Assembly (NCBI RefSeq): GCF_050320075.1
Contig: NZ_CP190018.1
Length of the DNA: 64,000 nucleotides
Reading direction: 5' to 3' (one strand)
From: Escherichia coli
Lineage (GTDB): Bacteria; Pseudomonadota; Gammaproteobacteria; Enterobacterales; Enterobacteriaceae
Part shown: positions 18,082-22,810 of the stretch, piece by piece
How the letters are laid out: the number at the start of each line of letters is the position of its first letter
How positions within the stretch are numbered: the stretch's first letter is position 1
Notes under the pieces: model-generated
The model's input: only the letters and a program-made list of their open reading frames with translations
The model's database searches: none
Told to the model about the DNA's origin: nothing
Program-made: the position numbers and the translations under genes

Positions 18082-18894
18082 ATGATCATTACACGAGCAG
18101 ACCTGCGAGAATGGCGTATCGGAGCGGTGATGTATCGCTGGTTCCTGCGCCATTTCCCACGCGGCGGTAGTTATGCCGATATTCATCATGCACTGATTGA
18201 GGAAGGATATACGGACTGGGCGGAGAGTCTGGTTGAGTATGCGTGGAAAAAATGGCTGGCGGATGAAAACTTCGCGCATCAGGAAGTTTCCTCTATGCAA
18301 AAATTGGCCACAGATCCCGGAGAGAGACCATTTTGCAGTCAGTTTGCCCGCAGCGACGATCATGCTCGCATCGGCTGTTGTGAGGATAATGCCAGAATCG
18401 CAACCGCTGGGTATGCCGCGCAAATTGCCAGTATGGGTTATAGCGTGCGGATTGGAAGTGTCGGCTTTAACAGTCACATTGGCAGCTCCGGTGAACGCGC
18501 ACGGGTTGCTGTAACCGGTAATTCTTCGCGGATAAGCAGCGCTGGAGATAGTAGTCGGATTGCGAATACCGGAATGCGAGTACGCGTTTGTACATTGGGT
18601 GAACGGTGTCATGTCGCCAGTAATGGTGACCTGGTGCAAATCGCCAGCTTTGGCGCAAACGCCAGAATTGCCAACAGCGGCGACAATGTACACATCATTG
18701 CCAGCGGTGAAGATTCAACAATAGTGAGCACGGGCGTGGTCGACTCAATTATTCTCGGGCCAGGGGGAAGCGCCGCACTGGCATATCATGACGGCGAAAG
18801 AGTTCGCTTCGCCGTCGCCATTGAAGGTGAAAACAATATTCGAGCCGGAGTCCGCTATCGTCTTAATGAACAGCATCAGTTTGTTGAGTGCTGA
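18082..18894 (+). CDS. ydhT: uncharacterised protein YdhT, 270 aa, central nonapeptide repeat region
   Basis: 270-aa ORF; periodic I-A-S-x-G-x-x-x-R repeats in the central region. Confidence 0.85.
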   Translation: MIITRADLREWRIGAVMYRWFLRHFPRGGSYADIHHALIEEGYTDWAESLVEYAWKKWLADENFAHQEVSSMQKLATDPGERPFCSQFARSDDHARIGCCEDNARIATAGYAAQIASMGYSVRIGSVGFNSHIGSSGERARVAVTGNSSRISSAGDSSRIANTGMRVRVCTLGERCHVASNGDLVQIASFGANARIANSGDNVHIIASGEDSTIVSTGVVDSIILGPGGSAALAYHDGERVRFAVAIEGENNIRAGVRYRLNEQHQFVEC

Positions 18895-18905
18895 TAGCTT
18901 TACCT

Positions 18906-20510
18906 TTAATCAAACGAAAGACGCCTACGTGCACGGGAGGCAGGTTTTACGACAGCCCGAGCCATCGCCTCACCAATTTCTGCACATGCCGTAAGTCCCT
19001 GAACGAAAGGCTGGTCGTGCATTAACCAGGGCAACGCGCCGAACGCTACGCGCCCACGAATATCTTCGGGTTGCTGTAACGTATAATCTTCGCCAACATC
19101 AGGGTTTTTATCCCCTGTTTTCTGTAATTGTTCGCGTAGTCCAGGGAAAGGAATATCTTTCACTTTAAGCGGACGCTGCCCACGGGCATCAATAAAAACG
19201 TCAAACGAGTAGCTGTTGTCTTCCGTTTTCAGGACGGTGCGCGACTCATTAATTTCCATTTCGTAGTCTTCACCGAGGGCGAGAATATGAATGATTCCCG
19301 CTTCACGTAAGGCCAGTAGTCGACGAATAGACTCTGAAGGGATTGCCGCATAATTATCGATGAAAACCCGGGCAAGGCCTTTACTGAACCGTTTATGGTC
19401 GTGTTCATTCAGATGTGGAACAATTTCCTGTACTGCTTCATGCAGGCGCAGAATGACATAACGCCAGGGAACAGTATGTTTTTCTCGTTTATTGCGTTCG
19501 ACTTCCTGGAGATTTTTTTCTGCCCAGTCAAATGGGTCGCGTTGTTTGCGCTCGGCAAACCAGGCTTGAGCAAAGGAATCGACATTCAGGCTCTCTAAGG
19601 CTATGCGTTGGCTCCAGCCTGGATCAGCAAACTTGATTTCCTCTACTATCAATCTAAATACCCGATCCAAAAGGCCATATTCGCCTTTTTGAATCTCAGC
19701 ATTTAATGCTTGATCAGTGACGATGTGTAAGGGCTCGTAGGGAATAGGGCAATAGAAATCGGCTTCGGGTAAAATACCCGTGCGCGACATTAACGTAATA
19801 TTTAGCTTTTCACTTGCGTTATCGCGGTGAAAAATGACGTGTTGTTTATCATCTTCAATGAACGAACCATGCTGAATAGCCACTGCCATTGCCGCATCCA
19901 GTCCGCTCAAGGATGTTCCCATAATACCCACGTTACACGCATCGACCTTTGCTTCCATCAGGCCTGACCACGGGCTGGGAAAGTACGTTCTGGTTGCTTC
20001 TTCTTCATCAGGCCAGACGTGACCCGTGGCAATCACCGCTAAATCAAACGTCTCGCTGGGTAAATCCTGATTTGTAGCGAGCATGACGCCAGCATTTGTA
20101 ATTTGCAGATCGGTAACCTGGCATGATTCATAAACAGCCACCGCAAATTTTTGCTGTCGTGCCTGGTCTACTAATCGTAAAAATTGATCGCGGAAATATT
20201 CGCCCAGCAGAATTCGCGGTAAAAACTGACGATCGTGCAAGGTTTCTTTTTTAACGCCATAACGCTGGAGATGGCTGGCTTCTTGCTTTTGTAGCCATTC
20301 GAGATACGTACAATAAATCGGCGGTATTTCAATACTGGCAATATTTGCCAGCATCAGTTTTGAGTTTTCCTCATCACTGTATGGCATCCCGACACCGGCT
20401 TCGTCAGCCTGCTCGAAGATAGAAATAGAAAGTGGAGTTTGTTGCTGTAGAAGCGAGAATAAGGTGTAGATCCCCGTAGGCCCGGCACCCACAATAGCAA
20501 TTTTTTTCAT
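18906..20510 (-). CDS. ydhS: FAD/NAD(P)-binding protein YdhS, 534 aa
   Basis: N-terminal Rossmann motif IAIVGAGPTG. Confidence 0.88.
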   Translation of the reverse strand: MKKIAIVGAGPTGIYTLFSLLQQQTPLSISIFEQADEAGVGMPYSDEENSKLMLANIASIEIPPIYCTYLEWLQKQEASHLQRYGVKKETLHDRQFLPRILLGEYFRDQFLRLVDQARQQKFAVAVYESCQVTDLQITNAGVMLATNQDLPSETFDLAVIATGHVWPDEEEATRTYFPSPWSGLMEAKVDACNVGIMGTSLSGLDAAMAVAIQHGSFIEDDKQHVIFHRDNASEKLNITLMSRTGILPEADFYCPIPYEPLHIVTDQALNAEIQKGEYGLLDRVFRLIVEEIKFADPGWSQRIALESLNVDSFAQAWFAERKQRDPFDWAEKNLQEVERNKREKHTVPWRYVILRLHEAVQEIVPHLNEHDHKRFSKGLARVFIDNYAAIPSESIRRLLALREAGIIHILALGEDYEMEINESRTVLKTEDNSYSFDVFIDARGQRPLKVKDIPFPGLREQLQKTGDKNPDVGEDYTLQQPEDIRGRVAFGALPWLMHDQPFVQGLTACAEIGEAMARAVVKPASRARRRLSFD

Positions 20511-20597
20511 TGTTACTTACCTGTACGCATTCTTTCGAATTTAGTGTTATCAGATAAGTTTGGTTGAAATTTTTAGAATTTGAGAAATTTCAGACAG

Positions 20598-20623
20598 GGA
20601 TGAAAAGGGCGCTAACCGCCCTT
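20598..20623 (-). terminator. probable ydhR terminator
   Basis: Hairpin AAGGGCG-CTAAC-CGCCCTT; minus strand followed by TTTTC. Confidence 0.4.
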
Positions 20624-20635
20624 GGTTAAAATCTG

Positions 20636-20941
20636 TCAGGCGAGTTTTGCCTGATTGATTTGACTCAGTGGCTCATTGACATCGAAAACTTTGGCGACAA
20701 CTTCCTCAACGCCGAGATTTTTCAGTCGGGCAGTATGTTTTTCCAGATAGGCAAGGGCGCTTTTTTCATCAGTGAAAAGGTAGATCCCACCGGCTTCGTG
20801 GTTCTTTTCACTTTCTGTCCATACCTTCCACAGAAAACCAGGTTCCTGATTAATCGACTCAGCAAGCGGTTCAAGCTGCTCAGCCATTGCGTCGCCAAAT
20901 GGGCCATTAAAAGCAAAATGAAGTTGTAACAAAGTTGCCAT
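20636..20941 (-). CDS. ydhR: putative monooxygenase YdhR, 101 aa
   Basis: 101-aa ORF adjacent to the tRNA-Val pair. Confidence 0.85.
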
Positions 20942-21048: not shown

Positions 21049-21125
21049 TGGTGCGTCCGAGTGGACTCGAACCACCGACCCCCACCATGTCAAGGTGGTG
21101 CTCTAACCAACTGAGCTACGGACGC
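21049..21125 (-). tRNA. valW: tRNA-Val (anticodon GAC), 77 nt with encoded CCA
   Basis: Reverse complement reads GCGTCCGTAGCTCAGTTGGTTAGAGCACCACCTTGACATGGTGGGGGTCGGTGGTTCGAGTCCACTCGGACGCACCA; anticodon loop TTGACAT. Confidence 0.95.
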
Positions 21126-21129
21126 AGGA

Positions 21130-21206
21130 TGGTGCGTTCAATTGGACTCGAACCAACGACCCCCACCATGTCAAGGTGGTGCTCTAACCAACTGAGCTAT
21201 GAACGC
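21130..21206 (-). tRNA. valV: tRNA-Val (anticodon GAC), 77 nt with encoded CCA
   Basis: Reverse complement reads GCGTTCATAGCTCAGTTGGTTAGAGCACCACCTTGACATGGTGGGGGTCGTTGGTTCGAGTCCAATTGAACGCACCA; 4-bp spacer to the other copy. Confidence 0.95.
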
Positions 21207-21513
21207 AACGTTGTAGGTGACAACGGGGACGAATATTAGCGGCAGAGTGGGAAGGTGGCAAGAGGCAAAACGTATTTTTCTGCGGTATTTCGACCGTTTG
21301 CAGAGCTTTTAAGCAAATTGGCTATATTTTGTTGATTTGCAAGGGCGATTTTTATTCAGGATCGCATTTACATCTGACACAACCCAATAATCTGTGTATC
21401 AGAGTTTAAACAGAGTTGTTTGCCACCATCTCAAATCTGTCGTGGATAAATCCTTCGTAGCCTTTACACTTAGGTAGCAATAAAGGCACACAGATGCAGC
21501 AAAGGAATAAATC

Positions 21514-22770
21514 ATGGGATCTGATGCGAAAAACTTGATGAGCGACGGGAACGTGCAAATTGTTAAGACCGGCGAGGTCATTGGCGTGACGCAACTTACT
21601 GAAGGTGAGTTAATTGTTGAAGCTGGCGGAAGAGCCGAAAATACCGTGGTCACGGGGGCTGGCTGGTTGAAAGTGGCAACCGGTGGGATCGCCAAATGCA
21701 CACAGTACGGCAACAATGGCACGCTATCGGTCAGCGACGGTGCCATTGCCACAGATATTGTTCAGTCCGAGGGAGGCGCAATTAGTCTCTCTACGCTCGC
21801 TACGGTTAATGGCCGCCATCCCGAAGGTGAATTCAGCGTTGATAAAGGTTATGCCTGCGGTTTGTTGCTGGAAAATGGCGGTAACCTGCGTGTACTGGAA
21901 GGCCATCGCGCGGAAAAAATTATTCTCGATCAAGAGGGTGGCCTGTTGGTCAATGGGACAACCTCAGCGGTCGTGGTAGATGAAGGTGGTGAATTGTTGG
22001 TGTATCCAGGTGGGGAAGCCAGCAATTGTGAGATTAATCAGGGCGGCGTTTTTATGCTGGCGGGGAAAGCCAGTGATACATTGCTTGCTGGTGGCACCAT
22101 GAATAATCTCGGTGGTGAAGACTCTGACACTATTGTTGAGAATGGATCCACTTATCGTCTGGGGACGGATGGTCTTCAGCTCTACAGTTCCGGTAAGACG
22201 CAAAACCTGTCCGTTAATGTGGGTGGTCGGGCTGAAGTGCATGCCGGTACGCTGGAAAATGCGGTAATACAAGGTGGGACAGTGATCCTGTTGTCACCCA
22301 CCAGCGCGGACGAAAATTTTGTCGTAGAGGAAGATCGCGTACCGGTTGAACTGACCGGTAGTGTTGCATTACTGGACGGCGCTTCAATGATTATTGGCTA
22401 TGGCGCAGATCTGCAACAATCAACGATTACTGTACAGCAGGGCGGTGTGTTGATTCTCGACGGCAGTACGGTAAAAGGTGACAGTGTCACTTTCAGTGTT
22501 GGTAACATCAATCTCAATGGCGGAAAACTGTGGCTGATCACTGATGCGGCAACGCAGGTGCATCTGAAAGTGAAACGCCTGCGTGGAGAGGGAGCCATTT
22601 GCCTGCAAACCAGTGCGAAAGAAATTTCACCTGACTTCATCAATGTGAAAGGGGAAGTTACCGGGGATATACACGTTGAGATAACAGATGCCAGTCGGCA
22701 AACTCTGTGTAACGCACTGAAACTACAGCCAGACGAAGACGGGATTGGCGCAACGCTCCAGCCTGCGTAA
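21514..22770 (+). CDS. ydhQ: autotransporter-adhesin-related beta-helix repeat protein YdhQ, 418 aa
   Basis: 418-aa Gly/Thr/Val-rich repeat protein; no N-terminal signal peptide or C-terminal beta-barrel evident. Confidence 0.85.
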   Translation: MGSDAKNLMSDGNVQIVKTGEVIGVTQLTEGELIVEAGGRAENTVVTGAGWLKVATGGIAKCTQYGNNGTLSVSDGAIATDIVQSEGGAISLSTLATVNGRHPEGEFSVDKGYACGLLLENGGNLRVLEGHRAEKIILDQEGGLLVNGTTSAVVVDEGGELLVYPGGEASNCEINQGGVFMLAGKASDTLLAGGTMNNLGGEDSDTIVENGSTYRLGTDGLQLYSSGKTQNLSVNVGGRAEVHAGTLENAVIQGGTVILLSPTSADENFVVEEDRVPVELTGSVALLDGASMIIGYGADLQQSTITVQQGGVLILDGSTVKGDSVTFSVGNINLNGGKLWLITDAATQVHLKVKRLRGEGAICLQTSAKEISPDFINVKGEVTGDIHVEITDASRQTLCNALKLQPDEDGIGATLQPA

Positions 22771-22776
22771 AAACAC

Positions 22777-22810
22777 AGGCGCAACCCGTGAAGGTTGCGC
22801 CTTGTCTTTA
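22777..22810. terminator. bidirectional terminator between convergent ydhQ and mdtK
   Basis: AGGCGCAACC-CGTGAA-GGTTGCGCCT followed by TGTCTTTA on plus; A-rich upstream gives a T-tract on minus. Confidence 0.7.

Follow-up and report, generated by a model that had tools for sequence, protein, structure and literature searches.

The 64,000-nucleotide stretch of Escherichia coli DNA analyzed here (contig NZ_CP190018.1 of assembly GCF_050320075.1; hereafter the window) contains an intact open reading frame (ORF) at positions 21514-22770 of the plus strand, which has an ATG start, comprises 418 codons plus stop and is the E. coli gene ydhQ. The protein matches the YdhQ equivalog model (NCBIfam NF007409 / PRK09945) with 932.4 bits, above the curated cut-off of 830 bits, and residues 1-418 fall on profile positions 1-418 of 418. 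The gene, its annotation and its missing leader have already been published. Our analysis adds genus-wide purifying selection, the history of a 1.5-kb insertion and a cysteine signature, and these bear on what a leaderless, adhesin-type protein may be doing in the cell. The locus comprises the following features, in window coordinates.

21514..22770, plus strand: ydhQ coding sequence, AIDA-repeat beta-helix protein (ORF, PRK09945, four Pfam AIDA stretches plus a partial Pertactin match, AlphaFold2 model at pLDDT 91.1)
21514..21549, plus strand: N-terminal peptide MGSDAKNLMSDG, predicted to be disordered, near-invariant in orthologs, no signal peptide (pLDDT, pN/pS, ortholog alignment)
21586..22293, plus strand: AIDA/Ag43-type beta-helix rungs, approximately residues 25-260, including the most conserved block at residues 95-146 (NF033177 alignment, PDB matches, dN/dS)
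22291..22350, plus strand: acidic loop LSPTSADENFVVEEDRVPVE, residues 260-279 (pLDDT, alignment to autotransporter homologs, ortholog conservation)
22498..22722, plus strand: shortened autochaperone/Pertactin-like region, residues 329-403, equal to profile positions 1-78 of 121 (Pfam, alignment to full-length autotransporters)
21502..21506, plus strand: Shine-Dalgarno sequence AAGGA, 7 nt before the ATG (read from the sequence)
22777..22802, no strand: hairpin of high G+C content, T-runs on either strand; bidirectional terminator common to the convergent ydhQ and mdtK
21306..22810, no strand: Escherichia-specific segment of approximately 1.5 kb, made up of 208 bp upstream, ydhQ and 40 bp downstream (outgroup homology limits)
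21049..21206, minus strand: valV-valW tRNA-Val(GAC) pair, divergent neighbor (ARAGORN)

A longer N-terminus is not possible, because an in-frame TAA lies at 21508-21510, two codons upstream of the ATG; stop codons crowd the upstream frames. The gene is monocistronic, flanked by the divergent valVW and by the convergent mdtK, the stop codon of which is 40 bp away, and neither a partner nor a transport gene adjoins it.

YdhQ is composed of domains of the autotransporter passenger type. Pfam detects AIDA (PF16168, E=7.4e-29) in four stretches and Pertactin (PF03212, E=2.7e-6) over profile positions 1-78 of 121, and the TIGR04415 strand-loop-strand repeat ("O-heptosylation target") is found with E=1.7e-11. 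NCBIfam gives weak partial matches to Ag43, AIDA-I, TIGR04415 and BafA. The Ag43 and AIDA-I equivalog models score 88.8 and 52.1 bits against a cut-off of 1200 bits, with residues 25-230 aligned to positions 249-456 of the Ag43 model (NF033177) and an E-value of 1.9e-14 for the AIDA-I model (NF033176). AC_1 (PF18883) gave no match to YdhQ at E<=1. Autocorrelation of the sequence with BLOSUM scores peaks near multiples of 18 residues (lag 36, z 4.1; lag 54, z 3.3), and there is an extra peak at lag 27 (z 3.3). An earlier reading of the sequence alone (the sequence-only reading) had described a Gly/Thr/Val-rich protein with repeated motifs such as GG..V.TG and.GGTL.V.DGA. The protein is indeed rich in glycine (15.1%), and its repeat character is well above what chance would give, as the AIDA and TIGR04415 matches show, but leucine (10.5%) exceeds threonine (8.1%; valine 9.6%), and the motifs that it quoted fit only approximately (e.g., NGTLSVSDGA, GGLLVNGT). 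The protein is very acidic, with a net charge of -27 and a pI of 4.42.

In the alignment with full autotransporters, YdhQ is equivalent to the ~420 residues at the C-terminal end of a passenger. Its Pertactin match covers positions 1-78 of 121, compared to positions 2-120 in full-length relatives. Fifteen residues remain after this region, and the protein ends at the "...TGGGxAxFxLA" position, so that it stops short of the final hairpins of the autochaperone and of the linker and barrel. Both devices that bring such passengers to the cell surface are missing, as the sequence-only reading had proposed. The N-terminus is acidic and not hydrophobic: the first 30 residues contain two K/R and four D/E, and the maximal Kyte-Doolittle value (15-residue window) within the first 50 residues is 1.11. 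Pfam finds no extended signal peptide region (ESPR) in YdhQ, and SignalP 6.0 was negative (PMC13101318). At the other end, YdhQ has no match to the PF03797 barrel, and the mdtK stop follows within 40 bp. A tblastn search of the whole 64-kb window with the linker and barrel regions that follow the autochaperone in autotransporters gave no real match, the single hit being one of 29 residues at E=0.58. When the flanks (307 bp upstream, 93 bp downstream) were compared by blastx with 107 autotransporter homologs, nothing scored better than E=1.2. Of the features that define a type Va autotransporter, YdhQ has the beta-helical passenger and lacks the signal peptide, the complete autochaperone, and the alpha-helical linker with the 12-stranded barrel. 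Failing three of the four, it is a passenger homolog and not a member of the type Va secretion family, and it cannot be a self-exporting adhesin.

The predicted structure agrees with the domain content. AlphaFold2, supplied with an alignment (A1) of orthologs plus autotransporter segments, gave a continuous all-beta solenoid with a predicted local distance difference test score (pLDDT) of 91.1 and a predicted template modeling score of 0.88; low confidence (pLDDT below 50) is limited to residues 1-11 and 267-273. In a Foldseek comparison to the PDB the top structures are Ag43 (7koh, 7ko9, 4kh3, 7kob) and TibA (4q1q), with E-values from 5e-11 to 8e-8; IgA1 protease, UpaB and pertactin come next, and a sequence search of the PDB returned the same families. 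The fold is repetitive, and no cleavable signal peptide was found.

We estimated selection from nonsynonymous and synonymous divergence (dN and dS; Nei-Gojobori method) in pairwise comparisons between Escherichia lineages. For ydhQ, dN/dS is 0.06-0.14 at dS values from 0.41 to above 1.1; this is above mdtK (0.01-0.02), and the other comparison genes gave 0.08-0.12 (ydhS) and mostly 0.06-0.09 (ydhR). Between E. coli and E. albertii, 101 of 279 differences are nonsynonymous, compared to 75% expected under neutrality (binomial P = 5.5e-43), and approximately 42 stop codons would be expected if the gene were neutral, such that the probability of finding none is ~3e-19. Constraint extends over the entire gene, as all 40-codon sliding windows have dN/dS of 0.04-0.26, those in the autochaperone remnant included. 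Eight alleles from different E. coli lineages are all intact, with a ratio of nonsynonymous to synonymous diversity (piN/piS) of 0.138 (ydhS, 0.138; ydhR, 0.24; mdtK, 0.033). Based on the divergence ratios, the odds against a stop-free frame, the windowed constraint and the intact alleles, a decaying pseudogene is ruled out: ydhQ is kept as a protein-coding gene by purifying selection throughout the genus. The sequence-only reading had offered "decayed autotransporter remnant" as one of two options. Of this, the ancestry stands, since YdhQ shares homology with passengers of the AIDA/Ag43 type over their C-terminal half, and the decay does not. Positively selected ydhQ sites have been claimed from a scan of 92 wastewater E. 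coli genomes (PMC9110714). We rejected positive or diversifying selection within E. coli on the overall piN/piS of the eight-allele sample, which is a gene-wide and not a site-level figure.

Parts of the protein stand out by their conservation among orthologs. Codons 1-13, which encode the disordered N-terminal peptide, have 0.022 nonsynonymous (pN) and 0.25 synonymous (pS) differences per site, and codons 81-140 have dN/dS of 0.04-0.06. The acidic loop at residues 260-279 (SPTSADENFVVEEDRVPVE) is longer than in autotransporter homologs, relative to which it appears as an insertion in alignment A1; it is kept in all orthologs, and the windows that cover it have dN/dS of 0.08-0.11. The N-terminal peptide, the acidic loop and the uncapped, shortened C-terminal end are the most likely candidates for functional sites; they are conserved in orthologs yet absent or different in the secreted relatives.

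The gene is a regular component of the genus. The 2.4-kb ydhQ locus of the window is 100% identical to that of E. coli strain 746. Of 5426 complete E. coli genomes, 5420 carry the locus at >=95% identity, with the annotation "ydhQ: AIDA repeat-containing protein" in all those listed, and the 90%-identity protein cluster has 8778 sequences, the listed members of which are all 418 aa long. Syntenic orthologs, likewise of 418 aa, are encoded by E. albertii (80% identity), E. marmotae (82%) and E. ruysiae/whittamii-type and other Escherichia (86-89%). In the deepest lineage, a 419-aa protein of 71% identity is encoded in the same setting, with the valVW promoter upstream and an MdtK 95% identical to that of the window downstream. 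Length (418-419 codons) and the positions of start and stop are kept in every lineage sampled. An exhaustive HMMER search of 1.84 billion cluster representatives returned a single full-length YdhQ cluster besides short YdhQ fragments. Identity is <=46% for all other relatives and <=38% for those of full length, which are large autotransporter-like proteins (1000-6000 aa). A wider family of barrel-less proteins of ~420 aa was considered and rejected, as the candidates (P0061, P0102, P0121, P0122 and P0127) are fragments of full autotransporters with signal peptides, out-of-frame tails or abrupt barrel-less ends.

A few variants depart from this pattern. E. coli EC100 (locus L094, 3447-4667) carries a rare allele with a 5´ deletion, in the 406-aa product of which the conserved N-terminal 18 residues are replaced by MQQRNKS from the former 5´ untranslated region. 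A few other database variants of 370-402 aa are singleton clusters, apart from a 207-member cluster of 398 aa labelled partial. In Escherichia sp. MOD1-EC7003 (locus L007, 4722-5672), which has an MdtK 99% identical to that of the window, there is no ydhQ just downstream of mdtK, where a DDE_3/HTH_33 transposase ORF extends to the end of the contig, a rare case in which an insertion sequence (IS) is associated with loss or disruption of ydhQ. Two further observations concern the neighboring ydhS. In E. albertii (locus L001, 3251-4432, compared with window 18082-20941) ydhT is followed directly by ydhR, and the locus lacks the 534-aa FAD/NAD(P)-binding ydhS that E. coli, E. marmotae and others possess. 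In E. coli ATCC 25922 (locus L089, 101-1711) ydhS is annotated 6 nt longer at the 3´ end than in other strains, which suggests that the usual stop codon has changed.

How ydhQ came to its present position was approached from 80 Enterobacteriaceae loci fetched through MdtK. In Enterobacter, Lelliottia, Leclercia, most Citrobacter, Salmonella arizonae, Kosakonia and others, the mdtK stop is ~160-230 bp from the tRNA-Val pair, whereas this distance is ~1.6 kb in Escherichia and the gap is filled by ydhQ. On the valVW promoter side, homology to Enterobacter, Salmonella, Citrobacter, Lelliottia and Kosakonia ceases at window 21269-21305; toward mdtK it ceases at the stop codon of this gene. The Escherichia-specific segment delimited in this way begins with the 208 bp of AT-rich non-coding DNA upstream of ydhQ and includes the hairpin at 22777-22802, which is new and replaces the outgroup mdtK terminators, from which it differs. 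No autotransporter lies between mdtK and valVW in about 75 outgroup Enterobacteriaceae loci retrieved with MdtK, and decay in situ of a full-length autotransporter was rejected on this ground. Given this spacer history, flanks free of autotransporter sequence, no barrel in the 64-kb window and no full-length relative at the slot, ydhQ was not truncated in place from a full-length ancestral gene still to be seen in relatives; it was in its reduced form when it arrived, or became fixed, ahead of the split of the Escherichia species. At identities of <=38%, sequence comparison does not allow the donor autotransporter to be named.

The promoter side of the spacer deserves separate mention. A promoter-like site for valVW is found at 21261-21233 on the minus strand. 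A genomic-SELEX (gSELEX; systematic evolution of ligands by exponential enrichment) peak of FlhDC, corresponding to window 21257-21298, has been assigned to "ydhQ/valV" (PMC9962212). This site lies mostly within the part of the spacer that is kept in genomes without ydhQ (homology reaches 21269-21305, depending on the outgroup) and more plausibly belongs to the valVW promoter than to ydhQ.

The mdtK-valVW spacer (window 21207-22810; elsewhere, for example, loci L074, 7372-8880, and L077, 7372-9000) is a variable cargo slot across Enterobacteriaceae. It holds a TetR regulator and a short-chain dehydrogenase (SDR) in Pseudescherichia vulneris, and Asr (acid shock protein) with a LOG/lysine-decarboxylase-like protein in Klebsiella pneumoniae, and there are insertions of 0.4-5 kb in Phytobacter, Yokenella, Raoultella, Pseudocitrobacter and some Kosakonia (sp. 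S29). In Kosakonia oryzendophytica (locus L078, 7864-13350) a full-length autotransporter ORF of at least 1828 aa has its barrel end nearest the tRNA-Val genes. It was rejected as the ancestor of ydhQ, being 28% identical and on the opposite (3´) side of the tRNA-Val pair, and is probably an independent tRNA-associated island.

The cellular location of YdhQ can be approached from its cysteines. Type Va passengers are poor in cysteine, as disulfides formed in the periplasm block translocation. Among ten full-length autotransporter relatives checked individually, nine (692-1534 aa) have 0-1 cysteine, and the tenth, P0151, has four in 1155 aa. YdhQ has five, and its orthologs have 3-7 per 418 aa (1.2%). 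Because YdhQ is rich in a residue that secreted type Va passengers avoid, its cysteine content suggests release from the constraint of secretion. The gene is expressed, native YdhQ having been quantified by mass spectrometry (PMC6561319, Table 2). YdhQ-pFAST fusions without a signal peptide fluoresce and are located in the cytosol, and when no leader is added, fusions yield no agarase activity outside the cell (PMC13101318). From sequence, cysteine content and these published data we infer a cytoplasmic location. The second option of the sequence-only reading, a cytoplasmic beta-helix protein, fits the absence of leader and barrel, the predicted beta-solenoid and the published cytosolic behavior. 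Deletion of ydhQ has served as a neutral control strain (PMC6962156 and GMT preprint), and the gene is dispensable under laboratory conditions.

Taken together, YdhQ is probably a stand-alone, leaderless and soluble right-handed beta-helix, derived from a passenger, maintained by selection, and serving as an acidic binding scaffold in the cytoplasm. It descends from the C-terminal half of an AIDA-I/Ag43-type (type Va) passenger and comprises AIDA rungs together with two-thirds of the autochaperone domain, counted from its start. In the Escherichia ancestor, ~1.5 kb of DNA with this part, its own ribosome-binding site and a terminator became fixed between mdtK and the valVW promoter, and purifying selection has kept the gene coding since then. 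The protein would fold and stay in the cytoplasm and, judging from its fold, may act as a rigid, very acidic binding scaffold. One extension, which we put forward tentatively, is that YdhQ is a domesticated passenger that lost both export devices at about the time when Escherichia arose and now has an Escherichia-specific intracellular function. The gained cysteines, the conserved acidic loop and the conserved N-terminal peptide could then be seen as adaptation to the reducing cytoplasm.

Several observations weigh against a cytoplasmic scaffold. No convincing sigma-70 promoter for ydhQ passed a simple scan of the upstream region on the plus strand. A surface role is hinted at by a second-hand report that ydhQ is needed in early adhesion (PMC9110714, citing Roux 2005), by the listing of YdhQ under COG3468 from extracellular-vesicle proteomes, and by a 2026 study that uses it as a "leaderless autotransporter" anchor and claims surface display with an added signal peptide (PMC13101318). 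YdhQ was also co-purified with EF-Tu (PMC2672614) and recovered in an E. coli RNA-interactome screen among 17 unannotated proteins (bioRxiv 10.1101/2023.07.03.547468); both observations are weak and contaminant-prone. The surface hints could be accommodated if YdhQ were an adhesin that aids early adhesion after unconventional export, be it by another autotransporter, the beta-barrel assembly machinery (BAM) or the translocation and assembly module (TAM), by lysis or vesicles, or by the flagellar export apparatus. Homology to the self-associating adhesins Ag43, AIDA-I and TibA, the FlhDC peak in the ydhQ-valV spacer, the conserved and disordered N-terminal peptide and the positive selection claimed from wastewater genomes would be in line with this. 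We nevertheless consider it unlikely. YdhQ carries no Sec, Tat or lipoprotein signal and no ESPR, no barrel is found in the gene or the 64-kb window and no transport gene adjoins, the cysteine content is unlike that of secreted passengers, and fusions without a signal peptide stay in the cytosol. The FlhDC site is in the ancestral part of the valVW promoter, conserved in genomes without ydhQ, and the within-species piN/piS is typical of a constrained gene. The display study is silent on the absent beta-barrel, and leakage from the periplasm may be an alternative account of its result.

The charge of the cytoplasmic protein and its recovery with RNA and EF-Tu could instead reflect a role related to nucleic acids, with the acidic solenoid acting as an RNA-associated factor or, like pentapeptide-repeat proteins, as a mimic of DNA or RNA. 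We give this only a slim chance, as an acidic surface disfavors direct RNA binding, autotransporter passengers are generally acidic such that the charge is inherited rather than diagnostic, the two experimental hints are single high-throughput observations, and Pfam and NCBIfam searches found no nucleic-acid-binding domain. The idea that YdhQ is a non-functional stump, with signal peptide and barrel deleted and the ORF open by chance, would explain the truncated-passenger architecture, with its Pertactin region cut at 78 of 121, and the deletion without obvious laboratory phenotype, and has a parallel in the small look-alikes P0061 and P0102, which are frameshifted fragments of full autotransporters. 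It is hardly tenable in the face of a length that stays at 418-419 codons in each Escherichia lineage examined, with dS reaching and exceeding 1.1, constraint in every 40-codon window with no stop codon, near-universal presence with intact alleles and a detected protein, flanks without autotransporter-like coding remnants and outgroups without a full-length autotransporter at the slot. Anti-phage defense and phage origin were considered and rejected: PADLOC gave no match, and the PHROG matches of YdhQ are to families of unknown function, the best being phrog_21473 with 947 positions, which is perhaps an Ag43-like prophage protein.

YdhQ is routinely listed and used as an "autotransporter adhesin". 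One paper takes ydhQ for a biofilm gene (PMC9110714) and another employs the protein to anchor surface display (PMC13101318), while its deletion serves as a neutral control. Mechanistically it cannot be an autotransporter, yet it is a selected protein of the whole genus, and an "AIDA repeat" annotation should not be taken as evidence of surface adhesion. The question shifts from whether ydhQ is a remnant to what intracellular job a leaderless adhesin-type beta-helix performs. If YdhQ is indeed domesticated, a type V secretion passenger would have been exapted for a role without secretion, and we know of no case that has been described as such so far. YdhQ is not a new kind of system.

Among known systems, the closest structures are those of the Antigen 43 (Flu/Cah) alpha-domain, which is the best match in the PDB both by sequence (E 1.8e-25 to 3.6e-22, YdhQ residues 26-212) and by fold (Foldseek E 5e-11 to 3e-8 for 4kh3, 7ko9, 7koh and 7kob). 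Ag43 and YdhQ share AIDA-type rungs and the unit "...VxGxNxxGxFxVxxGxAxxxxLExGGxLxVL", but Ag43 resides at the cell surface and is equipped with four export elements, namely signal peptide, complete autochaperone, linker and 12-stranded barrel. YdhQ has none of the four and contains five cysteines. AIDA-I, Ag43 and TibA are self-associating autotransporters (SAATs), which are located at the surface and cause cell aggregation by head-to-tail self-association. The glycosylated members AIDA-I and TibA belong to the same repeat family as YdhQ (TibA 4q1q, E 3.3e-13 by sequence and 8.4e-8 by fold), and are full autotransporters encoded next to a heptosyltransferase gene, plasmid- or island-borne and strain-specific; ydhQ, in contrast, is a monocistronic gene of the chromosome that occurs in nearly all of the E. 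coli genomes sampled and encodes no export parts. Among the AIDA-type autotransporters of enterobacteria, the closest passenger is that of the 1534-aa P0026 (38% identity), with P0072, P0105, P0158 and P0167 as further examples. In their C-terminal part, these passengers are collinear with YdhQ through the AIDA rungs, the "M(N/Q)NLGGxDxxT" segment and the first part of the Pertactin/autochaperone region, and the proteins bear an ESPR or another kind of signal peptide as well as a full autochaperone (AC_1/Pertactin 1-120); those with a detectable C-terminus also have a PF03797 barrel.

For a possible mode of action, bactofilins and pentapeptide-repeat proteins come to mind, as leaderless intracellular beta-solenoids that work through their surface or ends and not by catalysis. 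A likeness of YdhQ to them is a hypothesis by functional analogy, and Pfam and NCBIfam searches detected no relationship. In its lack of self-export, ydhQ resembles the disrupted autotransporter genes of E. coli K-12, such as yaiT, ycgH, ydbA and yejO, which are strain-variable pseudogenes broken by IS elements, frameshifts or deletions. All are derived from autotransporters, but ydhQ differs from the others in being uninterrupted, fixed in the genus and under purifying selection.

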